Notes under the pieces: model-generated
Seen by the model: only the letters and a program-made list of their open reading frames with translations
Told to the model about the DNA's origin: nothing
Databases searched by the model: none
Translations under genes and position numbers: made by a program
Assembly (NCBI GenBank): GCA_022340905.1
Contig: JAJDNB010000084.1
Span: 1,920 to 65,919 of the forward strand
Source of the DNA: Deltaproteobacteria bacterium
GTDB taxonomy: Bacteria; Desulfobacterota; Syntrophobacteria; BM002
DNA: 64,000 nt
Direction: 5' to 3'
In this document: positions 23,431 through 42,555 of the stretch, piece after piece
How the letters are laid out: every line of letters starts with the position of its first letter
Numbering within the stretch: position 1 is the first letter of the stretch

Positions 23431-23508
23431 GTAGTCTAGAGATATTCTTTTATATTCTCCGGCTTTTTGGCTGGGGAGCTGCTGCCAGGAGCAAAGGAAC
23501 TCAGAGCC

Positions 23509-25263: not shown

Positions 25264-25483
25264 GTTGCATATCTTGCAACATTAGTTGCATTATGTTGCG
25301 AATGAGCTCATCATATAAAAAATAATAGATTACAGATAGTTATAAAAAGTAGCTCCACCTGCTGTTGCATAACTGAAGCAACAAGACGCCACCCACCCTT
25401 CCATTTTTCTTGCCATTACCTGCACTAAGCAATTGAAATTAAATGATTTTGTTCCTTGCCTAGCTATCTGGCACGTACCTGGC
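25264..25483 (+). promoter_or_regulatory. Sigma-54 promoter with upstream enhancer palindromes and an IHF-like AT-rich tract
   Basis: TGGCACGTACCTGGC gives GG(25470)-N10-GC(25482). GTTGCA-N5-TGCAAC at 25264; TGTTGC-N9-GCAACA at 25363; AT-rich tract ~25426-25450. Confidence 0.7.
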
Positions 25484-25520
25484 ATTATGATCCAGACACA
25501 AACCCATTGGAGTGTTTCGG

Positions 25521-27854
25521 ATGAGTGAGTCAGTGAGAGGAAACTCAAATCGAGATTTTCTCAGAAGGTTGAGGCAAAGTCTCAGTTTTAAATTGGGTCT
25601 GGCGGTGGGTTTGATTTTCCTGGTTGCGGTACTTGCCCTCACCTTCTATCTCGTATCGCTCCAAAAAGAGCAAGCTTTTGAAAGAATGGTGATGAATGTA
25701 AACCAGTTTAGTGACACGGTGAAGCGGGGCGCCCACTACAGCATGCTCAAGAACCAGCGGGAGAGTTTGCACAAGATTATTGAGGCCATCGGTGCCCAGC
25801 CGGGAGTGGAGAAGATCCGGGTATTCAATAAGACCGGCGAAATCATGTTTGCCAGCGCGAAAGAGGATATCGGTACTAATGTAGATCTACAGGCGGAGGC
25901 GTGTTATGCCTGCCACCGGCGGGACCAGCCCCTGGAACGGCTGAGCATGAGCGATCGCACCCGAATCTATCGAAGCCCGGCAGGAAATCGAGTCCTGGGC
26001 ATGATCAACCCCATATATAATGAGCCCAGTTGCTGGCAGGCTGCTTGTCACTACCATCCAGCGAAGCAGACCGTCCTGGGGGTCTTGGATATAGGTCTAT
26101 CGCTGCAGCCTTTAGATCAGGAAATCCTTGCCACCAAGAAGAAGATTATCTTTTTTGCCACCCTCATCTTCATAGGGGTCACCGTTATTGTGGCCGGTTG
26201 CATCGTCTATTTCGTTAACCGACCCATTCGCCGCCTGGTTTCAGCTACAAAGCAACTCGCAAGAGGTGACTACGAGCAGGAGGTGAATACCATTACTCAA
26301 GATGAGATCGGCGATCTCTCCCGCTCCTTTGACAAGATGCGACAAAACATCAGAGATCAGGCCAATGCTCTCCAGAAAAGCAAGGAAGAATATCAGACTC
26401 TGTTCACACAGGTTCCCTGCCAGATCAGCGTTCAAAACCGGGACTTTCGCATCACCCAAGTGAACAGGGTCTTCGAGGAGCGCTTTGGGGACTGCCAAGG
26501 GGAGTACTGTTACCGGGCTTACAAGGGCAGGGAGGAGAAATGCTTAGTCTGCCCAGTTGAAAAGACGTTCCAGGACGGCCTGCCCCATTCAAGCGAGGAG
26601 ACGGTGGTACGCAAAGATGGCACTCTCGCCTATGTTCTTGCTTTTACCTCCCCCATATTTGACGAAGAGGGTAGGGTGGTGGCTTCCATGGAGATGGCAA
26701 CGGATATTACCCAGGTGCGGTTGTTGGAACAGGAGCTTAAGCGATCAGAGGAAAAGTACCGGACCCTGTTTAACAGTGATCCCAACCCTATTTTTGTAGT
26801 GAACCTTGACAACTTGGAGATCAAGGACGCAAACGAACGAGCCCTCAAGTTCTATGGTTTCGCCCGGGATGAAATCCTCGGCAAAAGCTTTCTGGAGCTA
26901 TCCGAACCCCAGGAATGGGATCGCCTCAGGAAAGTCCCGTGGGAGAGAGAAGGGGCAGTCTACAAGGTGAGACAGCATACTAAAGAAACTGAATCAATAG
27001 TGGTGAACATACGTTACTCTAGCCTTAAAGACATTGGCCAGGATTCCGTTATTGTCACCACCTCTGATGTGACCGAGCGGGTCAAGAGCGAAGAGCAGCT
27101 CATTCAGGCGAGTAAAATGGCCACCTTGGGCGAAATGTCGGCAGGCGTTGCTCATGAGTTAAATCAACCCCTCTCGGTGATAAAGACTTCCGCCAGTTTT
27201 CTCACCAAGAAGATAGATCGAAACGAGCCAGTGTCTCCTGATATTCTTCGGGAGTTAGCAGCTGAAATGGACAGTCAGGTGGACCGTGCTTCACTCATTA
27301 TAAATCACCTGCGCCAATTTGGCCGGAAAACAGACATTCGCAAAGCAAACGTGCAACTTAATGATTGCATTTCCGGGACCTTCACGGTTCTAGGCCGCCA
27401 GTTGGAAGTTCATGGCATCAAGGTAGAACTGGACTTGGAGCAAGAGTTGCCACCAATAAAAGGTGATCGGAACCGGTTGGAGCAAGTTTTTCTCAACCTC
27501 ATCATGAACGCCCGTGATGCCATGGATGAAAAGCAGGAGCGAGCGGGACAGGATATTGAAAAAGTACTCAGGATCTCATCAAGAACTGCAGGCGATCGGG
27601 TGCTGGTGGATGTGTCCGATACCGGACCGGGCATGAGCGAAGAGGTGAAAGAGAAGATATTCGAACCTTTTTTTACCACCAAACCGGTTGGAAAAGGGAC
27701 CGGATTAGGCCTGTCAATTAGCTTTGGCATTGTGCGGGACTATGACGGCATCATAGAGGTACAAAGTGTCGAGGGTCGAGGGACCATATTTTCCCTAAGC
27801 TTTCCAACGGCGGCAGAAGAAACCCCGGAGCCCAGGGAGGTTGCTAGTGGCTGA
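25521..27854 (+). CDS. Membrane sensor histidine kinase: periplasmic CxxCH domain, HAMP, 2x PAS, HisKA/HATPase
   Basis: Two TM segments, CYACH, AHELNQPL H-box, EQVFLNLIMNARDA, DTGPG, GTGLGL. Confidence 0.93.
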   Translation: MSESVRGNSNRDFLRRLRQSLSFKLGLAVGLIFLVAVLALTFYLVSLQKEQAFERMVMNVNQFSDTVKRGAHYSMLKNQRESLHKIIEAIGAQPGVEKIRVFNKTGEIMFASAKEDIGTNVDLQAEACYACHRRDQPLERLSMSDRTRIYRSPAGNRVLGMINPIYNEPSCWQAACHYHPAKQTVLGVLDIGLSLQPLDQEILATKKKIIFFATLIFIGVTVIVAGCIVYFVNRPIRRLVSATKQLARGDYEQEVNTITQDEIGDLSRSFDKMRQNIRDQANALQKSKEEYQTLFTQVPCQISVQNRDFRITQVNRVFEERFGDCQGEYCYRAYKGREEKCLVCPVEKTFQDGLPHSSEETVVRKDGTLAYVLAFTSPIFDEEGRVVASMEMATDITQVRLLEQELKRSEEKYRTLFNSDPNPIFVVNLDNLEIKDANERALKFYGFARDEILGKSFLELSEPQEWDRLRKVPWEREGAVYKVRQHTKETESIVVNIRYSSLKDIGQDSVIVTTSDVTERVKSEEQLIQASKMATLGEMSAGVAHELNQPLSVIKTSASFLTKKIDRNEPVSPDILRELAAEMDSQVDRASLIINHLRQFGRKTDIRKANVQLNDCISGTFTVLGRQLEVHGIKVELDLEQELPPIKGDRNRLEQVFLNLIMNARDAMDEKQERAGQDIEKVLRISSRTAGDRVLVDVSDTGPGMSEEVKEKIFEPFFTTKPVGKGTGLGLSISFGIVRDYDGIIEVQSVEGRGTIFSLSFPTAAEETPEPREVASG

Positions 27855-29475
27855 AGCCAATTTAAAGCGCGTCCTCCTTATCGATGACGAAGAGGGTATC
27901 AGAAAGGTCATGTCGATTGCCCTCAAGGACGCCGGCTATGTGGTTTGGACTGCCGAAAGCGGCGAGCAAGGGTTGGAAATATTCGAACGAGAGAAACCAC
28001 CGCTTGTTCTTACTGATATCAAGATGCCGGGGATGGACGGTATTGGAGTGCTTCGGCGCATAAAAGAAATGGAGACCGATTCCGAGGTAATCATCATAAC
28101 CGGCCACGGCGAGATGGAACTGGCCATCAGCGCCTTGCAGCTGGAGGCCTCAGATTTTATTACCAAGCCCATACATGACGAGGCCCTGTTTATTTCTCTA
28201 AGGCGGGCCGAGGAAAAAATCTCTCTTAAGAGGCAGCTGCGAGATTATACGGAGAACCTAGAGCTGAAGGTCCAAGAGGCCACTGCTGAGATCCAGCGTA
28301 TCAGTGACTTTCAGGCCAACCTCATCGACAACTCCTTGGATGGGATTGTGGCCGGAGATGCAGAGAGAAAGGTTGTTATTTTTAATGAAAGCGCCCAGCG
28401 GCTGACTGGGTACAGGGAGGGTGAGGTGGTGGGGCGGCTCACCCTAGAAGATCTCTATGATAAGGAGATTGTTGATCTTTGGCTAAGCCGGGAGGGAGAA
28501 GCGCCAGACCCCGCAAGTGAAAAGCGTACTAGTCATCTGGATACAACCATCCAGTCTCGGGAAGGAAGAAAAATTCCAATTCGATTAAATCACACTATCC
28601 TACGAAAAGAAGGCCACAAGGTGGGCTGCGTTACCTTCTTCCAAGACTTACGCGAAATTCGCCGCTTGGAAAAACGGCTGGTGCAATCAGAGCGGCTGGC
28701 TGCCATCGGTCAGACCTCGGCCACTATTGCCCATGCCATAAAAAATATAGTGGGTGGTTTGAAAGGCGGGATGTTTGTGGTCAATAAGGGCTTCGAGCTA
28801 TCAAACCAGGACTATCTGCAGAATGGCTGGGACATGGTCCAGCGCAACGTTGCCAAGATCTCAAGCCTGGCCATGGACCTGCTCACCTATGCCAAGGAGC
28901 GGAAACCTGAATACCGCTTAGCAGAAGCCAATACGGTGGCGGCGGAGGCTGTGGAGCTCTTAAAAACGAGGGCAGCGGAGTTCAAGGTGAATCTAACCTT
29001 GGAAGCCACAGAGGGGTTGGAGCCGGTTGCAATGGATGTCAGCGGTATTCATCAATGTTTGGTCAACCTGATCAACAATGCCATTGACGCCTGCTGGCCA
29101 GAAATATGTGGCCATGAACAGGGGCAGGTTGCGGTGCGCACTTGTCGCGACCCGGACTGGGCAGTCTGTTTCGAGGTGGAAGATAATGGTTGTGGAATAG
29201 AGGCGAGCAACAAAGAGAAGATCTTCACCAATTTTTTCAGCACTAAAGGGGCTGACGGTACTGGCTTGGGACTGCTCAACGTCCAGAAAATTGCCCAAGA
29301 ACACGGAGGTTCTGTTGAGGTTGAATCTGAGCCCGGCAAGGGCTCAGTATTTCGTCTCTTGCTACCCTCGGGACCCAGCAAGGATACAGAAGATCTCAAC
29401 GAAAATGGCACAGAGGAGAATGAGAACCAAGAAGCATACTCGGTCGTGGCCCAAGCAGACAGGAGGAAGTCATGA
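27847..29475 (+). CDS. Hybrid REC-PAS-histidine kinase
   Basis: LLIDDE...TDIKMPGMDG...ITKP receiver; AHAIKN H-box; DNGCG, GTGLGL. Confidence 0.93.
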   Translation: MAEANLKRVLLIDDEEGIRKVMSIALKDAGYVVWTAESGEQGLEIFEREKPPLVLTDIKMPGMDGIGVLRRIKEMETDSEVIIITGHGEMELAISALQLEASDFITKPIHDEALFISLRRAEEKISLKRQLRDYTENLELKVQEATAEIQRISDFQANLIDNSLDGIVAGDAERKVVIFNESAQRLTGYREGEVVGRLTLEDLYDKEIVDLWLSREGEAPDPASEKRTSHLDTTIQSREGRKIPIRLNHTILRKEGHKVGCVTFFQDLREIRRLEKRLVQSERLAAIGQTSATIAHAIKNIVGGLKGGMFVVNKGFELSNQDYLQNGWDMVQRNVAKISSLAMDLLTYAKERKPEYRLAEANTVAAEAVELLKTRAAEFKVNLTLEATEGLEPVAMDVSGIHQCLVNLINNAIDACWPEICGHEQGQVAVRTCRDPDWAVCFEVEDNGCGIEASNKEKIFTNFFSTKGADGTGLGLLNVQKIAQEHGGSVEVESEPGKGSVFRLLLPSGPSKDTEDLNENGTEENENQEAYSVVAQADRRKS

Positions 29476-29954
29476 TTGAATATCAAAACATTCTGTATTG
29501 CAGTGATTTTTCTGAGGAGGCAGAGATGGCATTCCATCACGCCGTAGACTTCTGCCAGCGGTATAACGCTAAGCTTCATCTACTCCATGTGCTGCACTCA
29601 GGATACAAGTACATGCGTCACGTGGTGGATGAGTATGTCGACCCCAGTAAGGATGAAGAAGTTGCAGACGATACGCTGATCAATCAAGCGGAGGAAGACC
29701 TCAAGTCTAAGTATGGAAGCCGGTTGGAAAATTGTAATCAGGCTGTCTTCGCAGTTCGAGTAGGGGTTCCCTTCGTGGAAATTGTTCGCTACGCCAGAGA
29801 GCACAAGGTGGATTTCATCATCATGGGTGCTTCGGGTAGCTCGGAGTTGGACAAGCAGACCTTCGGCAGCACGGTGGAAAATGTCGCCAGGCGGGCACAC
29901 TGCCACGTGATGGCCATCCGCAACCCGGAGCTGGCCTTTAAGCTCCCCGACTGA
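29472..29954 (+). CDS. Universal stress protein
   Basis: ILYCSDFSEEA, GVPFVEIV, IIMGASG...FGSTVENVAR. Confidence 0.9.
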   Translation: MIEYQNILYCSDFSEEAEMAFHHAVDFCQRYNAKLHLLHVLHSGYKYMRHVVDEYVDPSKDEEVADDTLINQAEEDLKSKYGSRLENCNQAVFAVRVGVPFVEIVRYAREHKVDFIIMGASGSSELDKQTFGSTVENVARRAHCHVMAIRNPELAFKLPD

Positions 29955-30068
29955 TTCGGCGGTGAACGGAATTGGTCAGGTTGGAAGGTGGAGCAGATGA
30001 GCAGATTATGGGTATAAGGCGAGGGTATTACATAAGAAGGAAATGATTCCAGTGAGAAGGAGAATATC

Positions 30069-30467
30069 ATGAAGAAAAAGAGGATCTTGGTGGTGGATGA
30101 CGAGCTGGACATGCGCACCTTCATCACCACTCTGCTAGAGACCAGTGGCTACAAACCGATTATCGCCATCAACGGAGAAGAGGGCATTCTCAAAGCCCGG
30201 GAGAAAAAACCGGCGGCAATTATCCTCGATGTGATGATGCCCCGAGAGGGCGGGATCCAAATGTATCGGGAACTGAAAACTGATGAGCAACTCAAGGATA
30301 TTCCGGTGATTATGCTGTCGGCCATAGCCAAAAAGACCTTTTTCCATTCCCAACAAGTGCTAAATACCTATAGAGGACAAAAGGTTCCAGAGCCGGCTGC
30401 ATACATAGAGAAGCCGCCGGAGACCGCGGAGCTTCTCCAGATTCTCGAACAGTGTCTCGGTTGTTAG
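30069..30467 (+). CDS. Single-domain response regulator
   Basis: ILVVDDE, ILDVMMP, IMLSA, YIEKP. Confidence 0.92.
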   Translation: MKKKRILVVDDELDMRTFITTLLETSGYKPIIAINGEEGILKAREKKPAAIILDVMMPREGGIQMYRELKTDEQLKDIPVIMLSAIAKKTFFHSQQVLNTYRGQKVPEPAAYIEKPPETAELLQILEQCLGC

Positions 30468-30509
30468 GAACGATTAATCGAATTAACTGGTTTCAAGTGA
30501 GGTTAGATT

Positions 30510-33500
30510 ATGGCAGCGAAAATTGGCGTTTACATTTGTCATTGTGGAACCAACATTGCTGGCAAGGTGGACACTGAGAAGGTGGCGGAGTTCGCTAAGG
30601 GGTTGAGAGATGTTGTAGTCGCCCGGGACTACAAGTTCATGTGTTCAGATCCTGGCCAGGAGATGATCCAAAAGGACATTCAGGAACTGGGTCTTAACCG
30701 AGTGGTGGTGGCCTCTTGCTCCCCTAGACTTCATGAGAAGACCTTTCAGGGCGCGTGCCAGAGAGCAGGTGTCAACCCTTATCTTTTTCAGATGGCTTGT
30801 ATTCGTGAACACTGTTCTTGGGTAGTCGAAGATAAGGATGAGGCCACCAGCAAGGCTAAGACTCTCGTAGCGGCGGCGGTGAGCCGGGTAAGTCAACATC
30901 AGAGACTTGCTACCAGGGAGGTGGGCGTCCACCCGGATGTGATGGTGGTTGGCGCAGGCATTGCCGGAATCCAGGCGGCGCTGGACATCGCCAAATCAGG
31001 CCACCAAATCTACCTAGTGGAGCGAAATCCCTCCATTGGTGGGCACATGATGAAGTTTGACAAGACCTTTCCCACCCTGGACTGCGCTGCCTGCATTTCC
31101 ACGCCCAAAACGGTAGCTGTAGCCCAGGAGCCAAATATCCACCTCTTTTCCTATAGCGAAGTGGCTGAGGTGAATGGCTATGTGGGAAATTACACGGTCA
31201 AGATCAAGAGAAAAGCCCGTTATGTCCGAGAGGACCAATGCACTGGCTGCGGCCAATGTTCAGAAGTGTGTCCGGTTTCCATGCCCAGCGAGTTCGATGA
31301 GTATCTCAGTGAACGCAAGGCTATTTACCGCTTTTTCCCTCAGGCAGTGCCAATTACCTATTGCATTGACAAAAAGGATCGGGCCCCATGCACCATTACC
31401 TGCCCTGCAGGCATTAATGTGCAGGGTTATGTTCAACTTATTGGCAAAGGAAAGTACAAGGAAGCTGTTCAGCTGATCATGGAACGGCTGCCCCTGCCAG
31501 GCGTGTTGGGGCGAGTATGTCCCCATCCCTGCGAGTTTCAATGTCGCCGGGCAGAAATTGATGAAGCAGTGGCCATCAGGGATCTGAAACGATTTGCAGC
31601 CGATCAGGTGGATTTGGCAGAGCTACCCAAGCCCGAAATCGAGGAACGGCCTGAAAAGGTCGCGGTGGTAGGATCCGGGCCCGCCGGGCTCGCAGTGGCC
31701 TACTATCTTCGACTGAAGGGCTACCAGATTACCATATTTGAGGCCCTGCCAGTACTGGGTGGCATGCTGCGCGTGGGCATACCGGATTACCGGCTTCCTC
31801 CAGAACTCCTTGATCAAGAAATAAACAACATACTGCGGCTGGGAATTGAAACGCAGACCGGGAAAAGACTTGGATTTGATTTTACCCTGGAAGATTTGAA
31901 GAAGGACGGTTATCAGGCTGTTTTCCTCGGTATTGGCGCTCACCGTAGCTTGAAAATGGGCATCAGTGGGGAGGAGGATTTTGAGGGTGTGGTAGATGCG
32001 GTAGATTTTCTCAGGGAAGTAAACCTGGGCGAGCGTGCAAGGCCGGGCAAGAGGGTAGTGGTTATCGGCGGCGGTAACGTTGCCATCGATGCTGCTCGGG
32101 CAGCAGTGCGCCTTGGGTGTGAGCAGGTAAACATCGTCTATAGACGAAGCCGGGAAGAGATGCCAGCGTACCCGGAGGAGATCGAGGGAGCCTTGTCCGA
32201 AGGGGTGGAGCTTCACTACCTTACTGCTCCTGTGGGCATTGTGGGCACCAACGGCAAAGTAAACGGTTTTGAGTGCATTCGAACTGAACTGGGGCCTCCC
32301 GATGAAAGCGGCAGGCGGAGGCCAGTACCGGTAGAAGGCTCTGAATTCGTCATTGAGTGTGATGCGGTCATCCCAGCAATAGGCCAGCAGCCTGATGTGG
32401 ACTGGGCAGTGGAACAGGGCGAACTCGAAATCACCAGACGCAACACCTTGGTGGTAGACCCGCACACCATGCAGACGGCAATCCCTGGTGTGTTTAGTGC
32501 TGGTGATTCAGTAAGTGGACCGGCAACGGTTATTGAAGCTGTGGCCTCCGGCCATAAGGCAGTGGAAGCCATACACCGCTACATCGAAGGGGAGGAGCTC
32601 GCTGTTTACGCCGAGGAGCTTGAAGCAAGAGAAGCCCCGGGGCAGGACTGGAGGGAGCTGCCTGAAGATTATCCGGTGGAGGCAAGAGCGCATCTGCCCC
32701 ACAAAGACCCCCAGGAGAGCAGATCTCATTTTGGCGAGGTGGCCCTGGGATTCGAGGAGGAAGAGGCGAGAAGAGAGGCGAATCGCTGCATCAATTGTGG
32801 CATCTGTTGCGAGTGTATGGAGTGTGTCCGAGCCTGTGAGAGAAATGCTGTCGACCATAACATGGAGGAGGAAGAAGTTGAGGTCAAGGTGGGGAGCATC
32901 ATCATGGCTACCGGATTTCAGGTTCTTGATCCCACTCCAATGAAGCAGTACGGTTATGGACGGTTCAAAGAGGTCTACACTGGTCTGGAGTTCGAGCGGC
33001 TGAACAATGCAGTGGGCCCCACGGGTGGAAAGATAGTAATGAAAAATGGCAAACCGCCAGCCAGCGTTGGCATCATCCACTGCGTGGGAAGTCGTGATGT
33101 TAATTACCACGAGTACTGCTCACGAGTGTGCTGCATGTATGCTCTCAAATATGGCCATCTTATCAAGGAAAAAGCCGGGCATGACACGCAGGTCTATAAT
33201 TTTTACATTGACATGCGATGTTTTGGCAAAGGATACGAGGAATTTTACCGTAGACTTCAAGAAGAGGGGATTACCTTCATACGGGGAAAACCTGCCGAGA
33301 TTACGGACCAGGCCATAGGAGCTGAGGAAGAGGGCAAACTTATCATTATTGGTGAAGACACCTTGATTGGTAAAAAGCTACGGGTGCCCGTGGACATGGT
33401 TGTTCTTTGTACGGCTATGGAGCCCACTAAAGATGCTGCTGAGGTGGCTCGGGTGTTTGGCATCAACCAGGGAGGCGATGGATTCTTCCTGGAAGAGCAT

Positions 33501-33896
33501 CCCAAACTGGGTCCGGTCTCCACTGCAACTGACGGAGTTTTTCTGGCAGGGACCTGCCAAGGGCCCAAGGACATTCCAGATGCTGTTTCCCATGCGGCTG
33601 GGGCGGCAGCTCAAGCGCTGGCTCTCGCTACCAGGGGCAAGGTGGAAATTCCTTCCACCATCTCCTGGATTGATCCTGATGTATGTGCGGGTTGTCAAGC
33701 CTGCATCAATCTTTGTCCGTATTCGGCCATTGAGTTCGATTCACGAAGAAACGTCTCGGTGATCAACGAGGCACTTTGTAAAGGATGTGGAAGTTGCGCC
33801 GGCCACTGCCCCAGTGGAGCCGCGCGAATCAACCATTTTACCGGTAGGCAGATCTTCGCTGAGATCGAGGGCATTCTGGACGACTTGGTTGGCTAG
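30510..33896 (+). CDS. hdrA: HdrL-type heterodisulfide reductase A with inserted GltD-like NAD(P)H/FAD module
   Basis: GVYICHCG, VVASCSPR, GAGIAG, DKTFPTLDC; GltD-like insert CPAG...GRVCPHPCE...GSGPAG...GIPDYRLP...GGGNVA; CVGSRD, CSRVCC; C-terminal ferredoxin. Confidence 0.92.
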   Translation: MAAKIGVYICHCGTNIAGKVDTEKVAEFAKGLRDVVVARDYKFMCSDPGQEMIQKDIQELGLNRVVVASCSPRLHEKTFQGACQRAGVNPYLFQMACIREHCSWVVEDKDEATSKAKTLVAAAVSRVSQHQRLATREVGVHPDVMVVGAGIAGIQAALDIAKSGHQIYLVERNPSIGGHMMKFDKTFPTLDCAACISTPKTVAVAQEPNIHLFSYSEVAEVNGYVGNYTVKIKRKARYVREDQCTGCGQCSEVCPVSMPSEFDEYLSERKAIYRFFPQAVPITYCIDKKDRAPCTITCPAGINVQGYVQLIGKGKYKEAVQLIMERLPLPGVLGRVCPHPCEFQCRRAEIDEAVAIRDLKRFAADQVDLAELPKPEIEERPEKVAVVGSGPAGLAVAYYLRLKGYQITIFEALPVLGGMLRVGIPDYRLPPELLDQEINNILRLGIETQTGKRLGFDFTLEDLKKDGYQAVFLGIGAHRSLKMGISGEEDFEGVVDAVDFLREVNLGERARPGKRVVVIGGGNVAIDAARAAVRLGCEQVNIVYRRSREEMPAYPEEIEGALSEGVELHYLTAPVGIVGTNGKVNGFECIRTELGPPDESGRRRPVPVEGSEFVIECDAVIPAIGQQPDVDWAVEQGELEITRRNTLVVDPHTMQTAIPGVFSAGDSVSGPATVIEAVASGHKAVEAIHRYIEGEELAVYAEELEAREAPGQDWRELPEDYPVEARAHLPHKDPQESRSHFGEVALGFEEEEARREANRCINCGICCECMECVRACERNAVDHNMEEEEVEVKVGSIIMATGFQVLDPTPMKQYGYGRFKEVYTGLEFERLNNAVGPTGGKIVMKNGKPPASVGIIHCVGSRDVNYHEYCSRVCCMYALKYGHLIKEKAGHDTQVYNFYIDMRCFGKGYEEFYRRLQEEGITFIRGKPAEITDQAIGAEEEGKLIIIGEDTLIGKKLRVPVDMVVLCTAMEPTKDAAEVARVFGINQGGDGFFLEEHPKLGPVSTATDGVFLAGTCQGPKDIPDAVSHAAGAAAQALALATRGKVEIPSTISWIDPDVCAGCQACINLCPYSAIEFDSRRNVSVINEALCKGCGSCAGHCPSGAARINHFTGRQIFAEIEGILDDLVG

Positions 33897-34009
33897 GTGA
33901 AAGGTGAATCTACCAAGGGAGAACACGGAATACCAGATAAAATCAGGGAAGGCTATTTAACAATTTTGGCATTTTAGCTCATTTTAGACATTTTAGTGGG
34001 AGGAAGAAC

Positions 34010-34432
34010 ATGTCAGACTTCGAGCCGACAATCATCGCTTTCGTTTGCAATTGGTGCACCTACACCGCTGCGGATTTGGCAGGGACCTCAAGGTTAACCC
34101 AGCCTCCCAACGTGAGGATGATCAGAATGATGTGCACCGGGATGGTGGACCCCAAGTATGTGATCAAGGCTTTATTGGAAGGGGCGGATGCAGTGCTCAT
34201 CAGCGGCTGCCATCCTGGCGACTGCCACTACATCAACGGCAACCTCAAGGCCCGCCGCCGGGTCAAATTGCTGAAGGAGATTTTGCCACGTTTCGGCTTT
34301 GACCAGCGGAGAGTTAAGCTCACGTGGATTGGAGCTAGTGAGGGCATTGACTTCGCCAACACTATGAACGAGTTGGTGGCTGAGGTCAAGGAGTTGGGCC
34401 CCAATGAAGTGCGGAAGCAGATGGTCATTTAA
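34010..34432 (+). CDS. mvhD: MvhD/HdrA-associated [2Fe-2S] subunit
   Basis: FVCNWCTYTAADLAG, MCTG, GCHPGDCHY. Confidence 0.95.
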   Translation: MSDFEPTIIAFVCNWCTYTAADLAGTSRLTQPPNVRMIRMMCTGMVDPKYVIKALLEGADAVLISGCHPGDCHYINGNLKARRRVKLLKEILPRFGFDQRRVKLTWIGASEGIDFANTMNELVAEVKELGPNEVRKQMVI

Positions 34433-34471
34433 GGATCTCTGTGTCCCAAGGAAAAGATCTGGAGGGAATCG

Positions 34472-35617
34472 ATGGCAACCACAGTGAAAATACCGATAAA
34501 AGATCAGAACTTGGTCAGTTCTTTACAGGATTTTTTCAAGGCAATGCTGCGGGACGGAGGCATAAACGGTCTCATGGTGGCCCAACACCTGCCGACGAAA
34601 AATTCAGTGATGCCCACGTTAGTGACAGACCCGGACAAGCTCGATACTGCCGATCCACTAGCACCCGTTTTTCCTATTAACGCAGCTAAAGTGGTTTCAA
34701 AGCTTACCAGAAAACCTCTCGGGGGGAAGGTGGCAGTTGTGCTTCGGCCCTGCGAGATCCGGGCCTTCATTGAGTTGGTGAAATTGAAGCAAGGGAGAGT
34801 CGATGACGTCGTCCTTATCGGGATGGACTGTCTGGGCGCATACAGCAATGTCCAATATCCTGATTTTGCCGGTGATAACGGCATGGAGGCAACCTTGAGG
34901 TTTTACCGCAACATTCAAGAAGGCAAGGGAACGGCTTGCGATGGCTTTGATGTTTCACCTGCCTGCAAGGCCTGCGAGCATCCCATACCGGAAAATGCTG
35001 ATGTGCTCATTGGCTTAGTGGGTGTGGACCTCAAAGATCACCTGCTGGCGAAGGCCAATACACCTCGAGGAGAGGAGCTGTTGGAAAATCTCGGGCTGTC
35101 CTCTACCAGTGAGCCGGAAAAACGGGGGAAAGAGATAGAAAAACTGGTGACAGAACGGCTGTCATATCGTGACCAGATGTTTGTTGAGACCAGTGAGGCC
35201 ACAGCAGACGTGGGGAAGCTTGTGAGTTATCTCGGCAACTGTGTCAATTGTTACAACTGCCGGGTGGCTTGCCCTGTTTGCTATTGCAAAGAGTGTGTTT
35301 TTCTCACCGATGTCTTCGACCACGAACCTTCGCAATATCTGAGATGGGCAAAGCGCAAGGGCATCCTAAAAATGCCCACAGACACGGTCTTCTTTCATTT
35401 GACCCGCATAGCTCACATGAGTACGGCGTGTATCGGTTGCGGCCAGTGTTCCAATGCCTGTCCCAACAATATACCCGTAATGGAGCTATTTCGAACCATG
35501 GCACACTACACGCAGACGGCCTTTGATTATGTAGCCGGACGGAGCCTAGAGGACGACCCTCCATTGTCGGTATTTCGGGAAGATGAATTCCAGGAGGTTG
35601 TGGCGAAATCACACTAG
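34472..35617 (+). CDS. FdhB/FrhB-like Fe-S subunit
   Basis: VVLRPCEIRA, IGMDCLG, ACKACEHP, CVNCYNCRVACPVCYCKEC, CIGCGQCSNACP. Confidence 0.85.
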   Translation: MATTVKIPIKDQNLVSSLQDFFKAMLRDGGINGLMVAQHLPTKNSVMPTLVTDPDKLDTADPLAPVFPINAAKVVSKLTRKPLGGKVAVVLRPCEIRAFIELVKLKQGRVDDVVLIGMDCLGAYSNVQYPDFAGDNGMEATLRFYRNIQEGKGTACDGFDVSPACKACEHPIPENADVLIGLVGVDLKDHLLAKANTPRGEELLENLGLSSTSEPEKRGKEIEKLVTERLSYRDQMFVETSEATADVGKLVSYLGNCVNCYNCRVACPVCYCKECVFLTDVFDHEPSQYLRWAKRKGILKMPTDTVFFHLTRIAHMSTACIGCGQCSNACPNNIPVMELFRTMAHYTQTAFDYVAGRSLEDDPPLSVFREDEFQEVVAKSH

Positions 35618-35844
35618 TTGTTCACGGACGATATCCGTGAACACGCATAGCGCATGGCGCCTGGGGAGATAATTTCGAATTTCGGATTGCGAATTTGAAA
35701 GACAGAGGGCAGGGATCAGAGCTCGGAGGTCGGAAAGCAATCGATTGAGCATTTCGGATTTTAAGATAATCGTCTTACGAGTTGAACGGTTTCAACGTCC
35801 TGAACGATTGGCTAGCCAGATTTTGGACTAAGAGGTATAGCGCA

Positions 35845-38800
35845 ATGAGAAAAAAGATAGGATCAGCCTTGGTGGTGGGAGCCGGAATCAGCGGTATTCG
35901 CTCCGCTTTGGATTTGGCAGAACTTGGCTACCAAGTAAAGCTCATTGACCGAGCACCGAACTTGGGAGGAACTCTTACGCAGCTTGACTACCAATTTCCC
36001 AGTGACCACTGCGGCATGTGCAAGATGCTGCCTCTGGTAGAACGGGATTCTTCTTCCCAATACTGCCTGCGCAAGGGGCTCTTTCACCAAAACATCGAGA
36101 TAATGCTCAACACTGAACTGGTGGAAATGGAGGGTGAGCCCGGCAAATTCGAGGTCACCTTGCGACAGAGACCTGCCGTAGTAGACCCAGAACTTTGCAT
36201 TGGTTGCGGAGAATGTAGTCGCGTTTGCCCGGTGGAAGTTGCAGACGAGTTCAATGCCGGATTGGCCAAGAGAAAAGCGGTCTATCTGCCAGTGCCCCAC
36301 AACATTCCTAATAACTACGTAGTCGACTTGGATTCCTGCACCATGTGTGGCGAGTGTGAAAAGATTTGTCCCACTGGGGCCATCGATTTCCGCTGGGAAG
36401 CACGGAGTCAATTTAAAATCCTGGTGGTAGATGATGAACTCATTGTGCGGGACTCGCTCAAAGATTGGCTGATCGAGGAGGGATTTGATGTTGACACGGC
36501 GGAATCCGGCCCCGCCGCTTTAGAAAAGATCGCCAAACAGCCATACCATCTGATGCTCCTTGACATCAAAATGCCAGAGATGGATGGGGTCGAAGTATTG
36601 CAGCGGGCTAAGGACATGCGGCCCGAACTTCCGGTGGTGATGATGACGGCGTACGCCACGGTGGAAACAGCAGTGGAGGCCATGAAGATTGGAGCTCTTG
36701 ACTATCTGATGAAACCCTTCGATCCAGATACCCTTGTTCCTCTGGTGGTTAAACTCTACGAGAACTTAGAGCGGGCGGGGGAGCTTAAGATGGAAGTCGG
36801 GGCGGTTATCCTGGCCGCGGGCTTTGGCTCCTTTGATCCGGCAGGAAACGGTTTGAACACGTACGGCTACGGTGAGATTCCCAATGTAGTTACCAGCATA
36901 GAGTTCGAACGGATAGTAAGTGCCAGCGGGCCCTCTCAGGGTAAACTGGTGCGTCCCAGCGATGGCAAAGAGATTCGCAAAATAGCCTGGCTTCAATGTG
37001 TGGGTTCCAGAGACATGCACGCAGATGCGGACTACTGCTCCTCCATCTGCTGTATGTTCTCCGTCAAAGAAGCACTGCTTGCCAAGGAGAGAAGCAATGG
37101 TCAGGTGGAGGCCGCGATCTTCTATATGGATATGCGAACTTTTGGCAAGGATTTCCAACGGTATCGGGACGAGGCAGAAAAGACATATGGGGTTAGGTTT
37201 CAGAGGAGCAGAGTTCACTCGGTGGAACAGAAGGAATTGGGAGGAGACCCGCGAATCGTCTACACGGATATCACGGGGACGGGACGGGAGGAGATTTTTG
37301 ACTTGGTGGTACTTGCCGCCGGCCAAAGACCACCTGCTGGCAGCGATGTCCTGGCGGAAACGACCGGAGTTGAATTGAATCAATGGGGGTTCTGCCAATT
37401 AAAACCTTTTTCTTTAAGTCTAACCAGCCAGGATGGGGTATACGTTGCCGGCTCCTTTTCGGGCCTCAGGGATATCTCCGAATCAGTAATTCAGGCAAGT
37501 TCCGCCTCCTTGAGGGCTTCCGGTCTGATACATTCAAAGGGTGGAGGCCTTGCCGAGGCCAGTGAATCAAAGGTTGCCTTTCGTGACGTATCCCGCGAAC
37601 CGCCTCAGGTCATGGTGGCTCTCTGCACCTGCGGCGACACCTTCACTCAGGCAGTTCAAATAAAAGAGGTGGAATCCTTTGTTTCGAATCTCGACTCCGT
37701 CAGCCATGTGCATCGCTTTGGAAGTATTTGCACGCAAGAAGGTTGGAATCAGCTTGAGCAAGCTATGGAAGCAAGCGGGGCAAACCGTCTCCTCATTGGG
37801 TCCTGCATGCCCTACCTTTACACGAGAAAACTTCGTGACCTGGGTGCAAATATAGGACTAAATCCTGCGCTCATGGAGGTTGTGGATATCCGGAGTTCCG
37901 TGTTTCCTGGAAATAACTCTAGCCAGGAGCAGGCGAGCCGGGAGATTCGGCTGGCGCTGTCCATGGGAGTGGGCAAACTCAAGGGGATGGACCCTTCGGT
38001 CTCGACCGGTACCCCCATTGCTCAAAAGGGGCTGGTGGTGGGCGGTGGGATAGCCGGTATGACTTCGGCATTGGGCATTGCTGAACATGGTTTCGAGGTT
38101 TTCTTGGTGGAAAAAACGGAGGAACTTGGGGGTAATCTCCGGCACCTCTATCGGACCCTCGAGGGCAACTCACCCCAGGAACTCTTGGAGCAGACGATCT
38201 CCAAGGTTCAAAGACATCCCAATATTCACCTGCACATGAATTCAAGGGTGCTCCATTCTCACGGTAGGGTTGGACGGTTCATTACTACCATTGAGAAAGA
38301 AGACGGCTCAGGTGAGACCCTTGAGCATGGGGTCACAATTCTGGCAACGGGAGGCAAAGAGGCCACCACCGAGTCCTACGGCTATGGTCAAAGTGACATC
38401 ATTGTTACCCAACACCAACTGGAGGAACAGCTCCATTCAGGTCAAATAGATCCTGCGGAGTTGGGCGTAGTTGCCATGATTCAATGCGTAGACTCACGGG
38501 AAGAGCCGCGGAACTACTGCAGCAGGATATGCTGTAGTTCGGCGCTGAAAAACGCCCTCTATTTAAAAGAACAAAATCCAGAGATCGATATTTATATCCT
38601 TTACCGAGATATTATGGCCTATGGATTTCTCGAGACTTATTACACCCAGGCGCGGCAGGCGGGGGTGATTTTCATTCAATACGACGTAGACGACAAACCG
38701 AAGGTTAACATAGAAAATGGCCGTGTCTCGGCTGCTGTCACTGATCCAATCCTGGGCCGGGAGGTGGTGGTGGAGACTGATCTGTTGGTGCTCAGTACCG

Positions 38801-39276
38801 GCATTGCTCCCGAGGGGCAAGGGAAGTTGGCAGAAATATTCGGGGTTGAAACAAACCAGGACGGCTTCTTTCAGGAGGCGGAGTATAAGTGGCGACCGGT
38901 GGATTTTCTTAGAGAAGGAGTTTTCACCTGCGGTATGTCGCATTCTCCGCGGAACATTACCGAATCCATTGCCATGGCGGAGGCAACTGCACAGCGAGCA
39001 CTTAGAATTCTTGCCAGCGAAAGACTGACTGCGGGCAGCACAGTCGCTGAGGTGCGCTACAGCCTTTGCTCACTGTGCGAGAAATGCATTGAAGCCTGTC
39101 CTTATGGAGCCAGGTGGCGAGATGAAGATGAAGAAAAGATAATGGTTGATGAGCTGAGCTGCCAGGGGTGTGGTTCCTGTGCGGCCGTTTGTCCCAACAG
39201 CGCCTCGGTTCTCCGTGGCTACCGGGATCAACAGATCTTCTCAGTGATTGATGCAGCACTGGAAGAGATTTTCTAA
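35845..39276 (+). CDS. hdrA: Tandem (double) HdrA-like flavoprotein with an embedded response-regulator receiver domain
   Basis: GAGISG FAD motif, 2x[4Fe-4S] insert, receiver (ILVVDDE...LLDIKMPEMDG...MMTAY...LMKPF), CVGSRD/CSSICC, ALCTCG, second GGGIAG FAD domain with CSRICC, C-terminal ferredoxin. Confidence 0.92.
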   Translation: MRKKIGSALVVGAGISGIRSALDLAELGYQVKLIDRAPNLGGTLTQLDYQFPSDHCGMCKMLPLVERDSSSQYCLRKGLFHQNIEIMLNTELVEMEGEPGKFEVTLRQRPAVVDPELCIGCGECSRVCPVEVADEFNAGLAKRKAVYLPVPHNIPNNYVVDLDSCTMCGECEKICPTGAIDFRWEARSQFKILVVDDELIVRDSLKDWLIEEGFDVDTAESGPAALEKIAKQPYHLMLLDIKMPEMDGVEVLQRAKDMRPELPVVMMTAYATVETAVEAMKIGALDYLMKPFDPDTLVPLVVKLYENLERAGELKMEVGAVILAAGFGSFDPAGNGLNTYGYGEIPNVVTSIEFERIVSASGPSQGKLVRPSDGKEIRKIAWLQCVGSRDMHADADYCSSICCMFSVKEALLAKERSNGQVEAAIFYMDMRTFGKDFQRYRDEAEKTYGVRFQRSRVHSVEQKELGGDPRIVYTDITGTGREEIFDLVVLAAGQRPPAGSDVLAETTGVELNQWGFCQLKPFSLSLTSQDGVYVAGSFSGLRDISESVIQASSASLRASGLIHSKGGGLAEASESKVAFRDVSREPPQVMVALCTCGDTFTQAVQIKEVESFVSNLDSVSHVHRFGSICTQEGWNQLEQAMEASGANRLLIGSCMPYLYTRKLRDLGANIGLNPALMEVVDIRSSVFPGNNSSQEQASREIRLALSMGVGKLKGMDPSVSTGTPIAQKGLVVGGGIAGMTSALGIAEHGFEVFLVEKTEELGGNLRHLYRTLEGNSPQELLEQTISKVQRHPNIHLHMNSRVLHSHGRVGRFITTIEKEDGSGETLEHGVTILATGGKEATTESYGYGQSDIIVTQHQLEEQLHSGQIDPAELGVVAMIQCVDSREEPRNYCSRICCSSALKNALYLKEQNPEIDIYILYRDIMAYGFLETYYTQARQAGVIFIQYDVDDKPKVNIENGRVSAAVTDPILGREVVVETDLLVLSTGIAPEGQGKLAEIFGVETNQDGFFQEAEYKWRPVDFLREGVFTCGMSHSPRNITESIAMAEATAQRALRILASERLTAGSTVAEVRYSLCSLCEKCIEACPYGARWRDEDEEKIMVDELSCQGCGSCAAVCPNSASVLRGYRDQQIFSVIDAALEEIF

Positions 39277-39418
39277 ATCGATACCCGATACTCGACACTC
39301 GATGCTTGATGCCAGATAAAAGAAAAAGGCAGTTTAAGCTATCCAGTATCAAGTATCCAGCATCCAGCATCTGAGCCGCTCTCAAGGCGGTGAATAACAA
39401 CAAAGGAGACAACATCCC

Positions 39419-39985
39419 ATGAGCGAAGAGACAAGAGAACTATCCGAGGGTCACGCCGAGGAAGATTTAATGGCCGCCATCCGGGAAAACATTAAAGCGT
39501 GCATGCAGTGCGGCACCTGCACCGGTTCTTGCGGCAGCGCTTATGCCATGGATTTCACCCCTAGGCAAATGTGGCGAATGGTTCAACTTGGCATGGTAGA
39601 TGAAATCTTTAATAGCCGGACCTTTTCCCTTTGCTCAAGTTGCTATTACTGCACCTTGCGCTGTCCGCGGGGCTTGCCTCTGACAGAGAGCATTCATGGT
39701 TTGAAGCAACTGGCTGTAGCCAAGGGAGTTGCAGAAAAAAAGGGAGCACGTTTCTACCAGACTTTTCTTGACACGGTCAGACGCTATGGCCGGGTGAGGG
39801 AGATGGAGCTCATGGCCAGGTACTTTATTGCCATGAAGAGTCCCGTACTCCCTCTGAGTTTCACCCCTCTCGGCATGAAACTTATGATGAAAGGCAAAGT
39901 CTCACCTGAAATGCCGCAATTCTTTAGGCCAGGGAAGTTGGACGGTATCTTTCGCAAGGTAAAAGAACTGGAGGCACGTTCATGA
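39419..39985 (+). CDS. hdrC: Heterodisulfide reductase subunit C-like
   Basis: CMQCGTCTGSC, CSSCYYCTLRCPRG. Confidence 0.92.
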   Translation: MSEETRELSEGHAEEDLMAAIRENIKACMQCGTCTGSCGSAYAMDFTPRQMWRMVQLGMVDEIFNSRTFSLCSSCYYCTLRCPRGLPLTESIHGLKQLAVAKGVAEKKGARFYQTFLDTVRRYGRVREMELMARYFIAMKSPVLPLSFTPLGMKLMMKGKVSPEMPQFFRPGKLDGIFRKVKELEARS

Positions 39986-40851
39986 AATACTTCTATTACT
40001 CCGGATGTTCTTTGGAGGGCACTGCGCTCGAATATGACATCTCCACCCGAGCGGTCATGCAAGCACTGGGAGTAGAACTGATCGAGTTGGATGATTGGAC
40101 CTGCTGCGGCGCCAGTGCAGCAGAGGCGGTCAGCGAGCTCCTTTCAATGGTACTTCCGGCTCGCAATCTGGCTTTGGCTGCAAGAATGGATCAAGACTGT
40201 GATTTTGTGATCCCCTGCAGTGCATGCTACCTCAATCTCAGGAAGGTAGACGAGCACCTAGATAGGGACGAAGGACTCCGAGAGAAAATCAATGCTGTCC
40301 TGCAGGAAGAGGAATTAAGCTACAAAGGAGGCATCAAATCTCGCCATTTGTTGGATGTACTTGCTACCGATATTGGTGCCGAGATGATCAAGGCTAAGGT
40401 AAACCGCAAGCTGTCAGGGCTGCGCATCGCTCCATATTATGGGTGTCAAGCCTTACGTCCTTACGGGGGCTACGACGACCCGGAAGAACCTCGATGTATG
40501 GAGCCGTTGATCGAGGCTCTTGGTGCAGAGGTGCATCCTTGGCCAATGGGTGCCAAATGCTGCGGTGCCGGGCTCATGACCACTAAGAAAGAAATCGCCC
40601 TTGAACTAACTGGTGAGCTGTTGAAGGCAGCGAAAGGGGCCGACTGTATTGCTACAGTATGTCCCATGTGCCAAATGAACCTAGATAGCTATCAGAAAAA
40701 GGTGTCCCAGGTCAAAGGTGAAGACTTGAGAATCTCGGTTCTCTATCTACCCCAGCTAATTGGTATGGCTTTTGGACTAAACGCAGAGGCTCTAAAATTA
40801 GATCTCAATATGGCTTATACTGATTCTTTACGAACAAAGCTCAAGAATTGA
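39982..40851 (+). CDS. hdrB: Heterodisulfide reductase subunit B-like (two CCG domains)
   Basis: YYSGCSL, DWTCCGA, PCSACY, YYGC, KCCG, CPMCQMNLD. Confidence 0.94.
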   Translation: MKYFYYSGCSLEGTALEYDISTRAVMQALGVELIELDDWTCCGASAAEAVSELLSMVLPARNLALAARMDQDCDFVIPCSACYLNLRKVDEHLDRDEGLREKINAVLQEEELSYKGGIKSRHLLDVLATDIGAEMIKAKVNRKLSGLRIAPYYGCQALRPYGGYDDPEEPRCMEPLIEALGAEVHPWPMGAKCCGAGLMTTKKEIALELTGELLKAAKGADCIATVCPMCQMNLDSYQKKVSQVKGEDLRISVLYLPQLIGMAFGLNAEALKLDLNMAYTDSLRTKLKN

Positions 40852-40866
40852 TTGCTTCAAGTGAAT

Positions 40867-40897
40867 GGGCGAGGTATATCCTCGCCCTAAGTTTTTT
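40867..40897 (+). terminator. Probable terminator of the hdr unit
   Basis: GGGCGAGG-TATAT-CCTCGCCC followed by TAAGTTTTTT. Confidence 0.6.
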
Positions 40898-40905
40898 CCG
40901 TAGAC

Positions 40906-40933
40906 ATATTACATAGTATGTGCTATGTAATAT
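40906..40933. promoter_or_regulatory. Candidate TetR operator
   Basis: Perfect 11-bp inverted repeat ATATTACATAG-N6-CTATGTAATAT directly before the TetR ATG. Confidence 0.7.
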
Positions 40934-40935
40934 CT

Positions 40936-41526: not shown

Positions 41527-41687
41527 TACTGAGGAGAGTACTGAACCACGAAGATCACAAAGAACACAAAGTTAAGTATTGGTGGCTCTGTAATTACTTC
41601 AGGATTTCACCATAATCTCTTTGTGGCCTTCGTGTACTTTGCGGTGAGACCTTATTTATAAGCAGTAAAAGAGAAAGGAGGAGGAAA

Positions 41688-42479: not shown

Positions 42480-42555
42480 CAAATGTCTAAAATGAGCTAA
42501 AGTGCCTAAAGTGTCTAAAATTACTAACCTTTTAATATGTTAGGAGAATGCGAAG

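Follow-up and report, generated by a model that had tools for sequence, protein, structure and literature searches.

A receiver domain inserted in HdrA and a co-occurring kinase with a putative haem sensor suggest possible phospho-control of an HdrABC/HdrL complex

Introduction

HdrABC/HdrL of Syntrophobacter fumaroxidans is encoded by Sfum_0819-0824, and the main text on it reports that the proteins were detected only with sulfate and proposes that the complex confurcates electrons towards DsrC (PMC5947623). Locus VIII of Desulfobacterium autotrophicum HRM2 comprises hdrL, fdhB, hdrA4 and hdrCB, according to the main text of the corresponding paper (PMC2702500). We analysed a stretch of 64,000 nucleotides, hereafter the window, from a Deltaproteobacteria bacterium (assembly GCA_022340905.1, contig JAJDNB010000084.1, positions 1,920 to 65,919 of the forward strand). 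It contains a cluster of this kind, the HdrABC/HdrL type of soluble redox complex of Desulfobacterota, in which a phosphoreceiver (REC) domain is inserted in the HdrA protein, here called HdrA-REC, and in which genes for two kinases (HK1 and HK2), a universal stress protein (USP) and a single-domain receiver (REC1) precede the hdr genes. An initial annotation of the window had presented the whole as its best candidate for an undescribed system; since the enzyme cluster was already known as HdrABC/HdrL, this holds for the regulatory layer only.

At the thermodynamic limit, many anaerobes rely on flavin-based electron bifurcation to keep their pools of ferredoxin, NAD(P)H and disulfides in balance. 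To our knowledge, bifurcating complexes have been treated as controlled by gene expression and substrate levels. We observed the gene content of the locus, the domain anatomy of its proteins, the conservation of the receiver's catalytic residues and a specific association of the kinases with HdrA-REC, in both co-occurrence and adjacency. The comparative evidence favours, without proving it, direct phospho-control of the complex, and on balance we lean towards a reading in which a periplasmic haem-sensor relay would phosphorylate HdrA and gate the enzyme, atop sigma-54 transcriptional control.

Results

The HdrA protein of the cluster contains a conserved receiver

The gene and its inserted domain were located as follows:

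35845-39276, + strand: HdrA-REC, 1143 amino acids; Response_reg E=1.5e-31 for the inserted REC
36412-36759, + strand: REC insertion in HdrA, residues 190-305; codon of the phospho-acceptor Asp240 at 36562-36564

The inserted domain matched PF00072 (E=1.5e-31) over profile positions 1-107 of 111 and contained the catalytic quintet D196, D197, D240, T268 and K290. Among 133 homologues (48-100% identity), these residues were kept in 130, 129, 132, 129 and 128 sequences, respectively, and the exceptions were loci of a Desulfovibrionales type. Column conservation was 0.83 in the receiver, compared with 0.60-0.85 in the catalytic (redox) domains. Judged by these residues, the HdrA receiver looks competent for phosphotransfer. 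It is of the NtrC type, with AtoC/ZraR as the best-scoring family models, far below their equivalog cut-offs. The family is large, with at least 120 clusters, all of those listed sharing 70% identity or more across residues 100-450; the entries that were checked carried PF00072, and the source records named the proteins 'response regulator', 'FAD-dependent oxidoreductase' or 'heterodisulfide reductase subunit A'.

Alignment to the HdrA chain 5odc_A (E=3.7e-128) resolved HdrA-REC into a tandem of two partial HdrA modules. Residues 8-185 corresponded to HdrA 146-313 (flavin domain with the inserted ferredoxin), residues 314-464 to HdrA 317-465, residues 585-798 to HdrA 2-216 (N-terminal domain and start of the second flavin domain) and residues 957-1137 to HdrA 465-648, including the C-terminal ferredoxin. 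Module 1 consists of a flavin adenine dinucleotide (FAD) domain, an inserted 2x[4Fe-4S] ferredoxin, the REC and the remainder of the FAD domain; module 2 consists of the HdrA N-terminal domain, an FAD domain without the inserted ferredoxin and the C-terminal ferredoxin. Neither module contained the full domain set of an HdrA protomer (module 1, only HdrA 146-465; module 2, 2-216 and 465-648), indicating that two fused flavin modules have one copy of each accessory domain in common and that HdrA-REC is, by this alignment, a single-chain pseudo-dimer. The FAD Rossmann motif and the HdrA cysteine pattern (CxGSRD...CSxxCC) were present in both modules, with invariant residues G12, G14, G17, C385, G387, S388, R389, C398, C402 and C403 in module 1 and G733-G735, G738, C881, R885, C892, C896 and C897 in module 2. 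HdrA-REC scored under the NCBIfam cut-offs of NF040770 (718.8 bits vs 1100) and NF041778 (538.9 bits vs 1400). Since HdrL adds another module to the two partial ones, the cluster contains three HdrA-type flavin modules, and its earlier description as a two-HdrA complex does not stand.

The receiver was spliced in between HdrA positions 313 and 317 of 5odc_A, precisely at the point where the chain passes from the inserted ferredoxin domain back into the flavin domain; the NfnB module of HdrL enters at almost this hot spot. The available text of PMC13518236 describes how, in solved structures of Hdr complexes, the low-potential electron exits the bifurcating FAD via the inserted ferredoxin domain. 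An AlphaFold2 model built from an alignment of 51 sequences (mean predicted local distance difference test score, pLDDT, 85; predicted template-modelling score 0.86) placed a canonical (beta-alpha)5 receiver at residues 191-310 (79-92 pLDDT by block), and alpha5 (294-310) ran without a linker into the flavin-domain strand 312-318. Homology suggests that the complex would carry out electron bifurcation or confurcation. The genome encodes elsewhere rpoN (contig C110), cytochrome c maturation genes, dsrA and dsrC, the last two of which make DsrC a candidate disulfide substrate.

HK1 contains a putative haem-type periplasmic sensor

The two kinase genes were located as follows:

25521-27854, + strand: HK1, 777 amino acids; transmembrane (TM) segment, periplasmic Cache-like domain, TM segment, HAMP, Cys-rich PAS, PAS, HisKA and HATPase
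27847-29475, + strand: HK2, REC-PAS-kinase hybrid; the open reading frame (ORF) opens at TTG 27841, and the likely start is GTG

HK1 matched HisKA (8.7e-11) and HATPase_c (1.4e-22). HK2 matched HATPase_c (4.4e-25) and gave no HisKA hit in Pfam; an H-box, 'IAHAIKN', was read by eye, and an AtoS-like alignment extended over residues 144-515. The best family models for both kinases were AtoS/ZraS, far below the equivalog cut-offs.

The HK1 sensor is a ~160-residue domain between two hydrophobic segments, read by eye (window 25590-26130, residues ~24-205), and carries two haem-c motifs, CYACH and CWQAACH. CxxCH and CX3-4CH motifs were kept in all nine of nine full-size HK1 orthologues. Sub-cut-off Pfam matches were found to Mcp40H-20_sensor, a haem-type chemoreceptor sensor (E=7e-4), and to the single-Cache domain sCache_4. 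These features suggest that the periplasmic domain is likely a haem-Cache/PAS sensor of redox state or gas. The first PAS domain of HK1 contains a Cys-rich stretch, 'GEYCYRAYKGREEKCLVCP' (window ~26470-26560), of which 'CY.AYKGR' is conserved in orthologues; it may form a metal or Fe-S site in this cytoplasmic domain.

Kinases co-occur with HdrA-REC

A scan of species-representative genomes yielded 80 loci, 30 of them with full-length relatives (L001-L029 and L034), and locus genes were mapped by BLAST with the window proteins and with home-made REC, kinase core, PAS, USP and sigma-54 AAA+ profiles. REC-bearing loci numbered 26, including the window; the REC was unreadable in L017, L022 and L028 because of a cut or frameshifted gene. 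In 190 kb of flanking sequence, taken up to 6 kb on each side, these 26 loci contained 32 kinase, 36 REC, 10 USP and 11 sigma-54 AAA+ genes, whereas 3.3, 3.95, 1.16 and 1.49, respectively, were expected from the density in this genome. The control, 40 REC-less tandem-HdrA/HdrL paralogue loci of related genomes (540 kb; long-contig genomes favoured), contained 10 kinase, 15 REC, 2 USP and 7 sigma-54 AAA+ genes. Kinase and REC genes were thus 7-9 times denser at the REC-bearing clusters than at the control loci. Of the 20 REC-bearing loci whose flanks extended over 3 kb or more, 18 had a kinase within 6 kb, compared with seven of the 40 control loci. No REC-kinase hybrids were found beside the REC-less relatives L024-L027 and L029, nor beside the five REC-less paralogues of this genome (C40, C41, C113 and C215, all short contigs).

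The same association was seen between genomes. Among 41 related genomes, a full-length HK1 orthologue was present in 20 of the 22 with HdrA-REC and in none of the 19 without it; the two HdrA-REC genomes lacking HK1 are 80% and 62% complete. By genus, HK1 was found in 6/6 with HdrA-REC and 0/12 without. The synteny of kinases with HdrA-REC, which the initial annotation had proposed as a check, was therefore borne out at the level of both loci and genomes.

The signalling genes occupied different positions around the cluster. They lay upstream, as in the window, in L002-L004, directly after hdrB in L005, L008, L010, L013, L014, L017, L018 and L020, and divergently upstream in L008, L011, L015, L019 and L023. 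That the association is kept despite this shuffling argues for selection and not for the inheritance of one arrangement.

In a tree of 94 kinase cores, taken from the loci and the whole genome, the HK1-type clade consisted of HdrA-REC-locus genes only, from 12 loci (the window, L002, L008, L010, L011, L013, L014, L017, L018, L020, L021 and L028), with no paralogue of this genome inside. The REC-HK2 clade was represented in nine loci, with a partial copy in a tenth (L017). A short HK1-type gene directly follows hdrB in L020, where the HdrA REC was the sole receiver detected, and on the operon strand of L011 the HdrA REC was the sole receiver accompanying the HK1-type gene, the other REC belonging to a divergent NtrC-type regulator upstream.

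One relative has a full HK1-HK2 pair far from the hdr cluster and only a truncated HK1 (residues 455-777) beside it (G002:C1:1021462-1025377 vs 1829299-1831873); the pair has been duplicated or moved.

REC1, USP and the hdr gene order at related loci

The genes between the kinases and hdrL were located as follows:

29472-29954, + strand: USP; PF00582 E=1.4e-26
30069-30467, + strand: REC1, single-domain receiver; DD, D, S and K present

REC1 contains an insert between beta4 and beta5 and lay directly 5' of HdrL, or of an FeS-CCG gene and HdrL, in eight loci. It was rejected as a marker of the system on account of paralogues with 55-76% identity on contig C227 of this genome (not near hdr) and in four genomes without HdrA-REC; HK2 was a weak marker, REC-PAS-kinase paralogues of 38-46% identity being common. 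USP genes adjoined the cluster in 9 of the 26 loci. In L009, a USP-REC-USP fusion lies directly after hdrB (L009:15166-16485, minus strand), beside a PAS-kinase. The REC of the fusion, along with its flanking residues, nearly duplicates that of HdrA in L009, which links USP to the same signalling input.

The order hdrL-mvhD-fdhB-hdrA-hdrC-hdrB was found in seven relatives' loci (L002, L004, L008, L009, L011, L013 and L018). Most other loci with sufficient sequence kept this order, except that one end was cut off, that a shorter HdrA replaced HdrL or that a fused FeS-CCG protein replaced HdrCB. A fused FeS-CCG (HdrD-like) protein of ~770 amino acids is encoded between REC1 and HdrL at L003:2378-4732, L014:1140-3431 and L034:5341-7647; no hdrCB follows HdrA-REC in L003 and L014, so the fused protein seems to replace HdrCB there.

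Among REC-less loci, the five tandem-HdrA/HdrL paralogues of this genome each have an MvhD gene, and related genomes gave 2-11 matches each. Two control loci (L083:6023-7018 and L114:13088-15502) contain a single REC directly before hdrA, together with a kinase and a REC-sigma54 regulator; such a separate receiver may represent the same principle acting in trans.

Cluster layout

Gene calls were taken from the ORF listing and Pfam scans. The remaining genes of the cluster and the upstream activator gene were as follows:

23467-25254, + strand: sigma-54 activator, PAS-PAS-AAA+(Sigma54_activat)-HTH_8, no REC; PF00158 E=1.3e-69, HTH_8 7e-15, two PAS
30510-33896, + strand: HdrL, complete HdrA with an NfnB/GltD-type NAD(P)H-FAD module; Pfam and PDB alignment
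34010-34432, + strand: MvhD-type (FlpD) [2Fe-2S] electron-transfer subunit; PF02662 E=9.7e-53
34472-35617, + strand: FdhB homologue, flavin/FeS subunit as in Fdh-Hdr complexes; Pfam and PDB alignment
39419-39985, + strand: HdrC-like ferredoxin subunit; TIGR03290 E=1.6e-23, below its cut-off
39982-40851, + strand: HdrB-like subunit with two CCG domains (disulfide-reducing site); PF02754 E=1.1e-24, two stretches

All genes named in the initial annotation were present with the domains ascribed to them, and all were co-oriented on the + strand (ORF listing, Pfam). HK1/HK2, HK2/USP and HdrC/HdrB overlap, the likely GTG start of HK2 overlapping the HK1 stop codon by 8 nt and the end of HK2 overlapping USP by 4 nt; the remaining gaps are 39-227 nt. 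HdrL aligned with 5odc_A (E=3e-220) and, over residues 291-695, with 5jca_L (3.7e-85), the NfnB/GltD-type module entering at HdrA residue ~291-299. The FdhB homologue aligned with FdhB subunits of Fdh-Hdr complexes (9t1s_M, 4.4e-32; 7bkb_E, 7.7e-26, residues 45-373). The cluster contains neither FdhA nor a hydrogenase.

A hairpin, GTTCACGGA-CGATA-TCCGTGAAC, lies directly 3' of the fdhB stop codon (window 35618-35650) and has no T-run; in the 227-nt gap between fdhB and hdrA-REC, it may be a processing or stability element. TetR, EtfB, EtfA and a 685-amino-acid FeS-CCG oxidoreductase are encoded 3' of the cluster (window 40918-45723), a set that corresponds to the EtfAB-HdrF-like module described for D. 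autotrophicum and is kept as a neighbour only in the closest relatives (L001, L003).

A sigma-54-type promoter precedes HK1

The following regulatory elements were found around the cluster:

23410-23429, either strand: palindrome TGTTGCAA-N4-TTGCAACA, perfect; matches on both strands at 23410 and 23422
25264-25392, no strand assigned: group of GTTGCA(T) repeats together with inverted repeats; distance to the promoter downstream, 80-205 nt
25469-25484, + strand: sigma-54-type -24/-12 element TGGCACGTACCTGGCA; GG and GC kept, one mismatch
40867-40897, + strand: intrinsic-terminator-like hairpin GGGCGAGG-TATAT-CCTCGCCC with a T-run; hairpin at 40867-40887

The -24/-12 element lies 36 nt 5' of the HK1 ATG, with the activator gene directly upstream; the GG/GC spacing, the nearby activator gene and the presence of rpoN in the genome all agree with a sigma-54 promoter. 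The initial annotation had reported such a promoter; its start coordinate, 25264, marks the GTTGCA repeats and not the promoter. Across the window, matches of this type were no rarer than chance (3 found, 2.56 expected), and about 0.005 are expected in one given 250-nt stretch of one strand; the element carries weight because of its position and not because of window-wide rarity. Further sigma-54-like sites lie inside fdhB (35499-35514, two mismatches) and inside hdrL (30545-30560).

The palindrome lies 38 nt upstream of the activator gene and is possibly the activator's own binding site. The GTTGCA repeats are candidate upstream activator sites. Three of the ten GTTGCAT copies of the window fall within a 107-nt span in this region, clustering that is by itself suggestive; no window-wide enrichment was found (TGTTGCAW, 7 vs 5.7 expected; GTTGCAT, 10 vs 8.5). 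TGTTGCA motifs of a similar kind lie upstream of a sigma-54-like site in L004, and orthologues of the activator, with 60% and 50% identity, adjoin the cluster in L004 and L018. The strong terminator-like hairpin has an 8-bp stem with 7 GC pairs.

In relatives, intergenic sigma-54-like sites (at most two mismatches) were found before REC1 or HdrL in L004, L011, L013, L018 and L034, the site of L011 being a perfect match. No such site was found between USP and REC1 in the window, so the kinases may be co-transcribed with the hdr genes here. Since the site of relatives mostly lies directly before REC1 or HdrL, the single ~15-kb sigma-54 unit proposed earlier would, if it exists, be particular to this lineage. 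Short metatranscriptome contigs from four runs of two studies (X1-X4), with 93-99% likeness to the window, covered 13-28 of 30 bins, most of 23.4-41.6 kb. The pieces bridged HK1/HK2, USP-REC1 and MvhD-FdhB, and the terminator was bridged too. Such contigs show that sequences of close relatives were in the RNA libraries and do not establish co-transcription, DNA carry-over being possible.

Discussion

Proposed control of the complex

In the proposed mechanism, HK1 would sense the periplasm through its Cache-like domain with two c-type haem motifs, responding to redox state or to a small haem ligand. It would autophosphorylate and pass the phosphoryl group to neighbouring receivers, namely the HK2 REC, REC1 and, above all, the HdrA REC. 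Phosphorylated Asp240 would shift the alpha4-beta5-alpha5 face of the HdrA REC, and the shifted face would reposition the ferredoxin domain or alter assembly of the complex. This could gate electron bifurcation or confurcation among ferredoxin, NAD(P)H at HdrL and, at HdrBC, a disulfide such as DsrC. The second layer would be transcription, with the PAS-PAS sigma-54 activator acting on the -24/-12 promoter. Given kinase synteny, HK1 co-occurrence and the receiver residues, the reading best supported is that of the initial annotation, in which the relay may end at the enzyme itself; phosphotransfer, gating and the identity of the cognate kinase are what we infer, as are the substrates, the signal and how the enzyme is affected.

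A more specific and more tentative possibility is that the di-haem kinase and the spliced-in receiver form a fast clutch on bifurcation or confurcation, switching the ferredoxin branch or HdrL/HdrABC assembly by extracytoplasmic redox state. If true, this would be the first direct phospho-control of an electron-bifurcating enzyme, and sulfate reducers and syntrophs would switch such an enzyme post-translationally on an extracytoplasmic signal. Asp240, HK1 and treatment with BeF3- or acetyl phosphate offer concrete ways to approach what the abundant HdrABC/HdrL complex does in the cell.

Points against direct control and alternative explanations

Several findings weigh against direct control of HdrA by HK1. 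HK1 adjoins the REC-HK2 hybrid in eight loci, so its direct target may be the receiver of HK2 and not that of HdrA, and L009 has an intact REC and no HK1-type kinase. The comparative figures themselves are to be read with care: 18 of the 41 genomes are from one genus, so that the tests (P values) overstate; the windows differ, with up to 6 kb outside the cluster in the test set and ±8.7 kb around the gene in the control; the background gene density was taken from one genome; and the domain models were home-made. Further points concern the relatives of the receiver and its decay in one clade, and these bear on the two main alternatives.

The first alternative, which we consider improbable, is that the two-component genes act only on transcription through an NtrC-type regulator, which lies beside the cluster in relatives and which this genome encodes at another place (contig C31, for example), and that the HdrA REC is a phosphate sink or competitor that leaves activity unchanged. 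A DNA-binding REC-sigma54 regulator adjoins the cluster in nine loci (L008, L011, L013, L015, L019, L021, L023, L028 and L034), and sigma-54-like sites lie 5' of the cluster in several. The HdrA REC is closest to NtrC-type receivers, including those of the adjacent regulators of L008, L011 and L034 and that of an NtrC-type regulator at the end of contig C31 of this genome. The C31 receiver is 58% identical to that of HdrA, closer than any other receiver of this genome, and the two are very similar in alpha1 ('DDELVIRESLHGWL' against 'DDELIVRDSLKDWL'). These four regulators each have their own PAS-kinase, and the C31 PAS-kinase could be the true partner of the HdrA REC or be shared with HdrA. 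On the other hand, a sink needs no linker-free splice into the enzyme core at the low-potential exit, and conservation of the REC matches that of the catalytic domains. L020 and the operon strand of L011 contain no other co-oriented receiver with the short HK1-type kinase, and the activator encoded in the window carries PAS domains in place of a receiver. No DNA-binding domain is attached to any of the three RECs of the locus (Pfam), as had been noted at the outset, so the claim of a relay with no DNA-binding output holds locally; the neighbouring regulators of the nine loci and that of C31 indicate that such an output exists in relatives, and probably in this genome, outside this locus.

Still less probable is a receiver that serves mainly as a structural or assembly pseudo-receiver, without phospho-control, the kinases serving the HK2 REC, REC1 and USP-linked functions. 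The usual pairing of HK1 with HK2 suits this explanation, as does a group of Desulfovibrionales-type loci. In 4 of the 24 loci with a readable receiver, DD, T and K are lost and the Asp alone is kept (L015 and L016, DPDGH; L019, TPDAR; L023, AADIT; compared with DDDTK), yielding a pseudo-receiver. Retention of a degenerate REC suggests that the domain has a role independent of phosphotransfer chemistry, and the enzyme presumably works there without phosphorylation, which also weighs against direct control. These loci have a hybrid kinase and a REC-sigma54 regulator upstream, always a tandem USP after hdrB and an HdrA of ~680 amino acids in place of HdrL. Yet no HK1 or HK2 was found at any of the four, so REC decay coincides with the absence of both kinases. 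Outside this clade, each of the five catalytic residues is found in 128-132 of 133 sequences; a domain with a purely structural role would not be expected to keep them, and the co-occurrence of HK1 with HdrA-REC across genomes also argues against this explanation.

Reversed flow, in which the FeS/flavin redox state of Hdr would set phosphate gain or loss by the REC and the enzyme would report cytoplasmic electron pressure to HK2 and REC1, is highly unlikely: the modelled rigid coupling of the REC to the flavin and ferredoxin domains would permit either direction, and REC1-type single receivers away from hdr loci may have other targets, but the idea is purely conceptual, no output for such a signal is known in the locus, and HK1 already has a periplasmic sensor and two PAS domains.

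Comparison with known systems

HdrABC/HdrL of S. fumaroxidans and locus VIII of HRM2, as described in the texts available, share with the window its six components: HdrL, MvhD, an FdhB-like FeS protein, HdrA, HdrC and HdrB. In a Syntrophobacter sp. metagenome-assembled genome (L008), the same order was found, with 60-87% identity and a REC in HdrA. The words 'receiver' and 'response regulator' occur 0 times in the main text on the S. fumaroxidans proteins, whose supplementary figures or tables may show the receiver (PMC5947623). The legend of Fig. 4 on HRM2 uses 'response regulator', 'histidine kinase' and 'CheY-like regulator' only among hdr-locus neighbours, and the main text links no receiver to HdrA, although the supplement may (PMC2702500). 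No receiver is among the HdrA domain architectures given in the available part of a preprint on the subject. In the main texts searched, we found no paper on a receiver in HdrA or on its kinases; the nearest match was the DNA-binding regulator of the D. vulgaris adh-hdr operon (PMC3333781). As far as the searched literature goes, an embedded conserved receiver with a dedicated haem-sensor kinase is undescribed.

The methanogen Mvh/Vhu- or Fdh-HdrABC complexes (5odc, 7bkb, 8rvu) share with the window the HdrA fold, FAD, the inserted and C-terminal ferredoxins and homologues of MvhD, FdhB, HdrB and HdrC. The window differs in its single-chain pseudo-dimer HdrA with a REC, in the NAD(P)H module of HdrL and in having no hydrogenase or FdhA. 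No phospho-regulation of methanogen Hdr enzymes was described in the literature examined. BamE of class II benzoyl-CoA reductase is also large and has two HdrA-like flavin modules; we know of no REC in BamE.

HK1 may resemble Geobacter GSU0582/GSU0935 and the 'Cache_heme' nitric oxide sensors, as far as the available accounts describe them, in its predicted extracytoplasmic PAS/Cache-like domain between two TM segments and its CXXCH motif. Unlike these, it combines CXXCH with CX3-4CH, and the histidine kinase that its sensor feeds is encoded next to an Hdr operon. AtoS/AtoC and ZraS/ZraR, of the NtrC family, share with the window a sigma-54 promoter and activator; in the window, the receiver would act on an enzyme, and PAS domains take the place of a REC in the local activator.

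CheB, PleD/WspR and RpfG are established cases in which a CheY-like receiver controls an attached catalytic domain and not DNA binding. In these proteins, a single small catalytic domain follows an N-terminal REC, whereas the REC of the window is inserted internally in a 1143-amino-acid multi-cofactor flavoprotein, itself a subunit of a six-gene complex. HdrA-REC thus offers a natural example of a REC grafted into a multi-cofactor enzyme.

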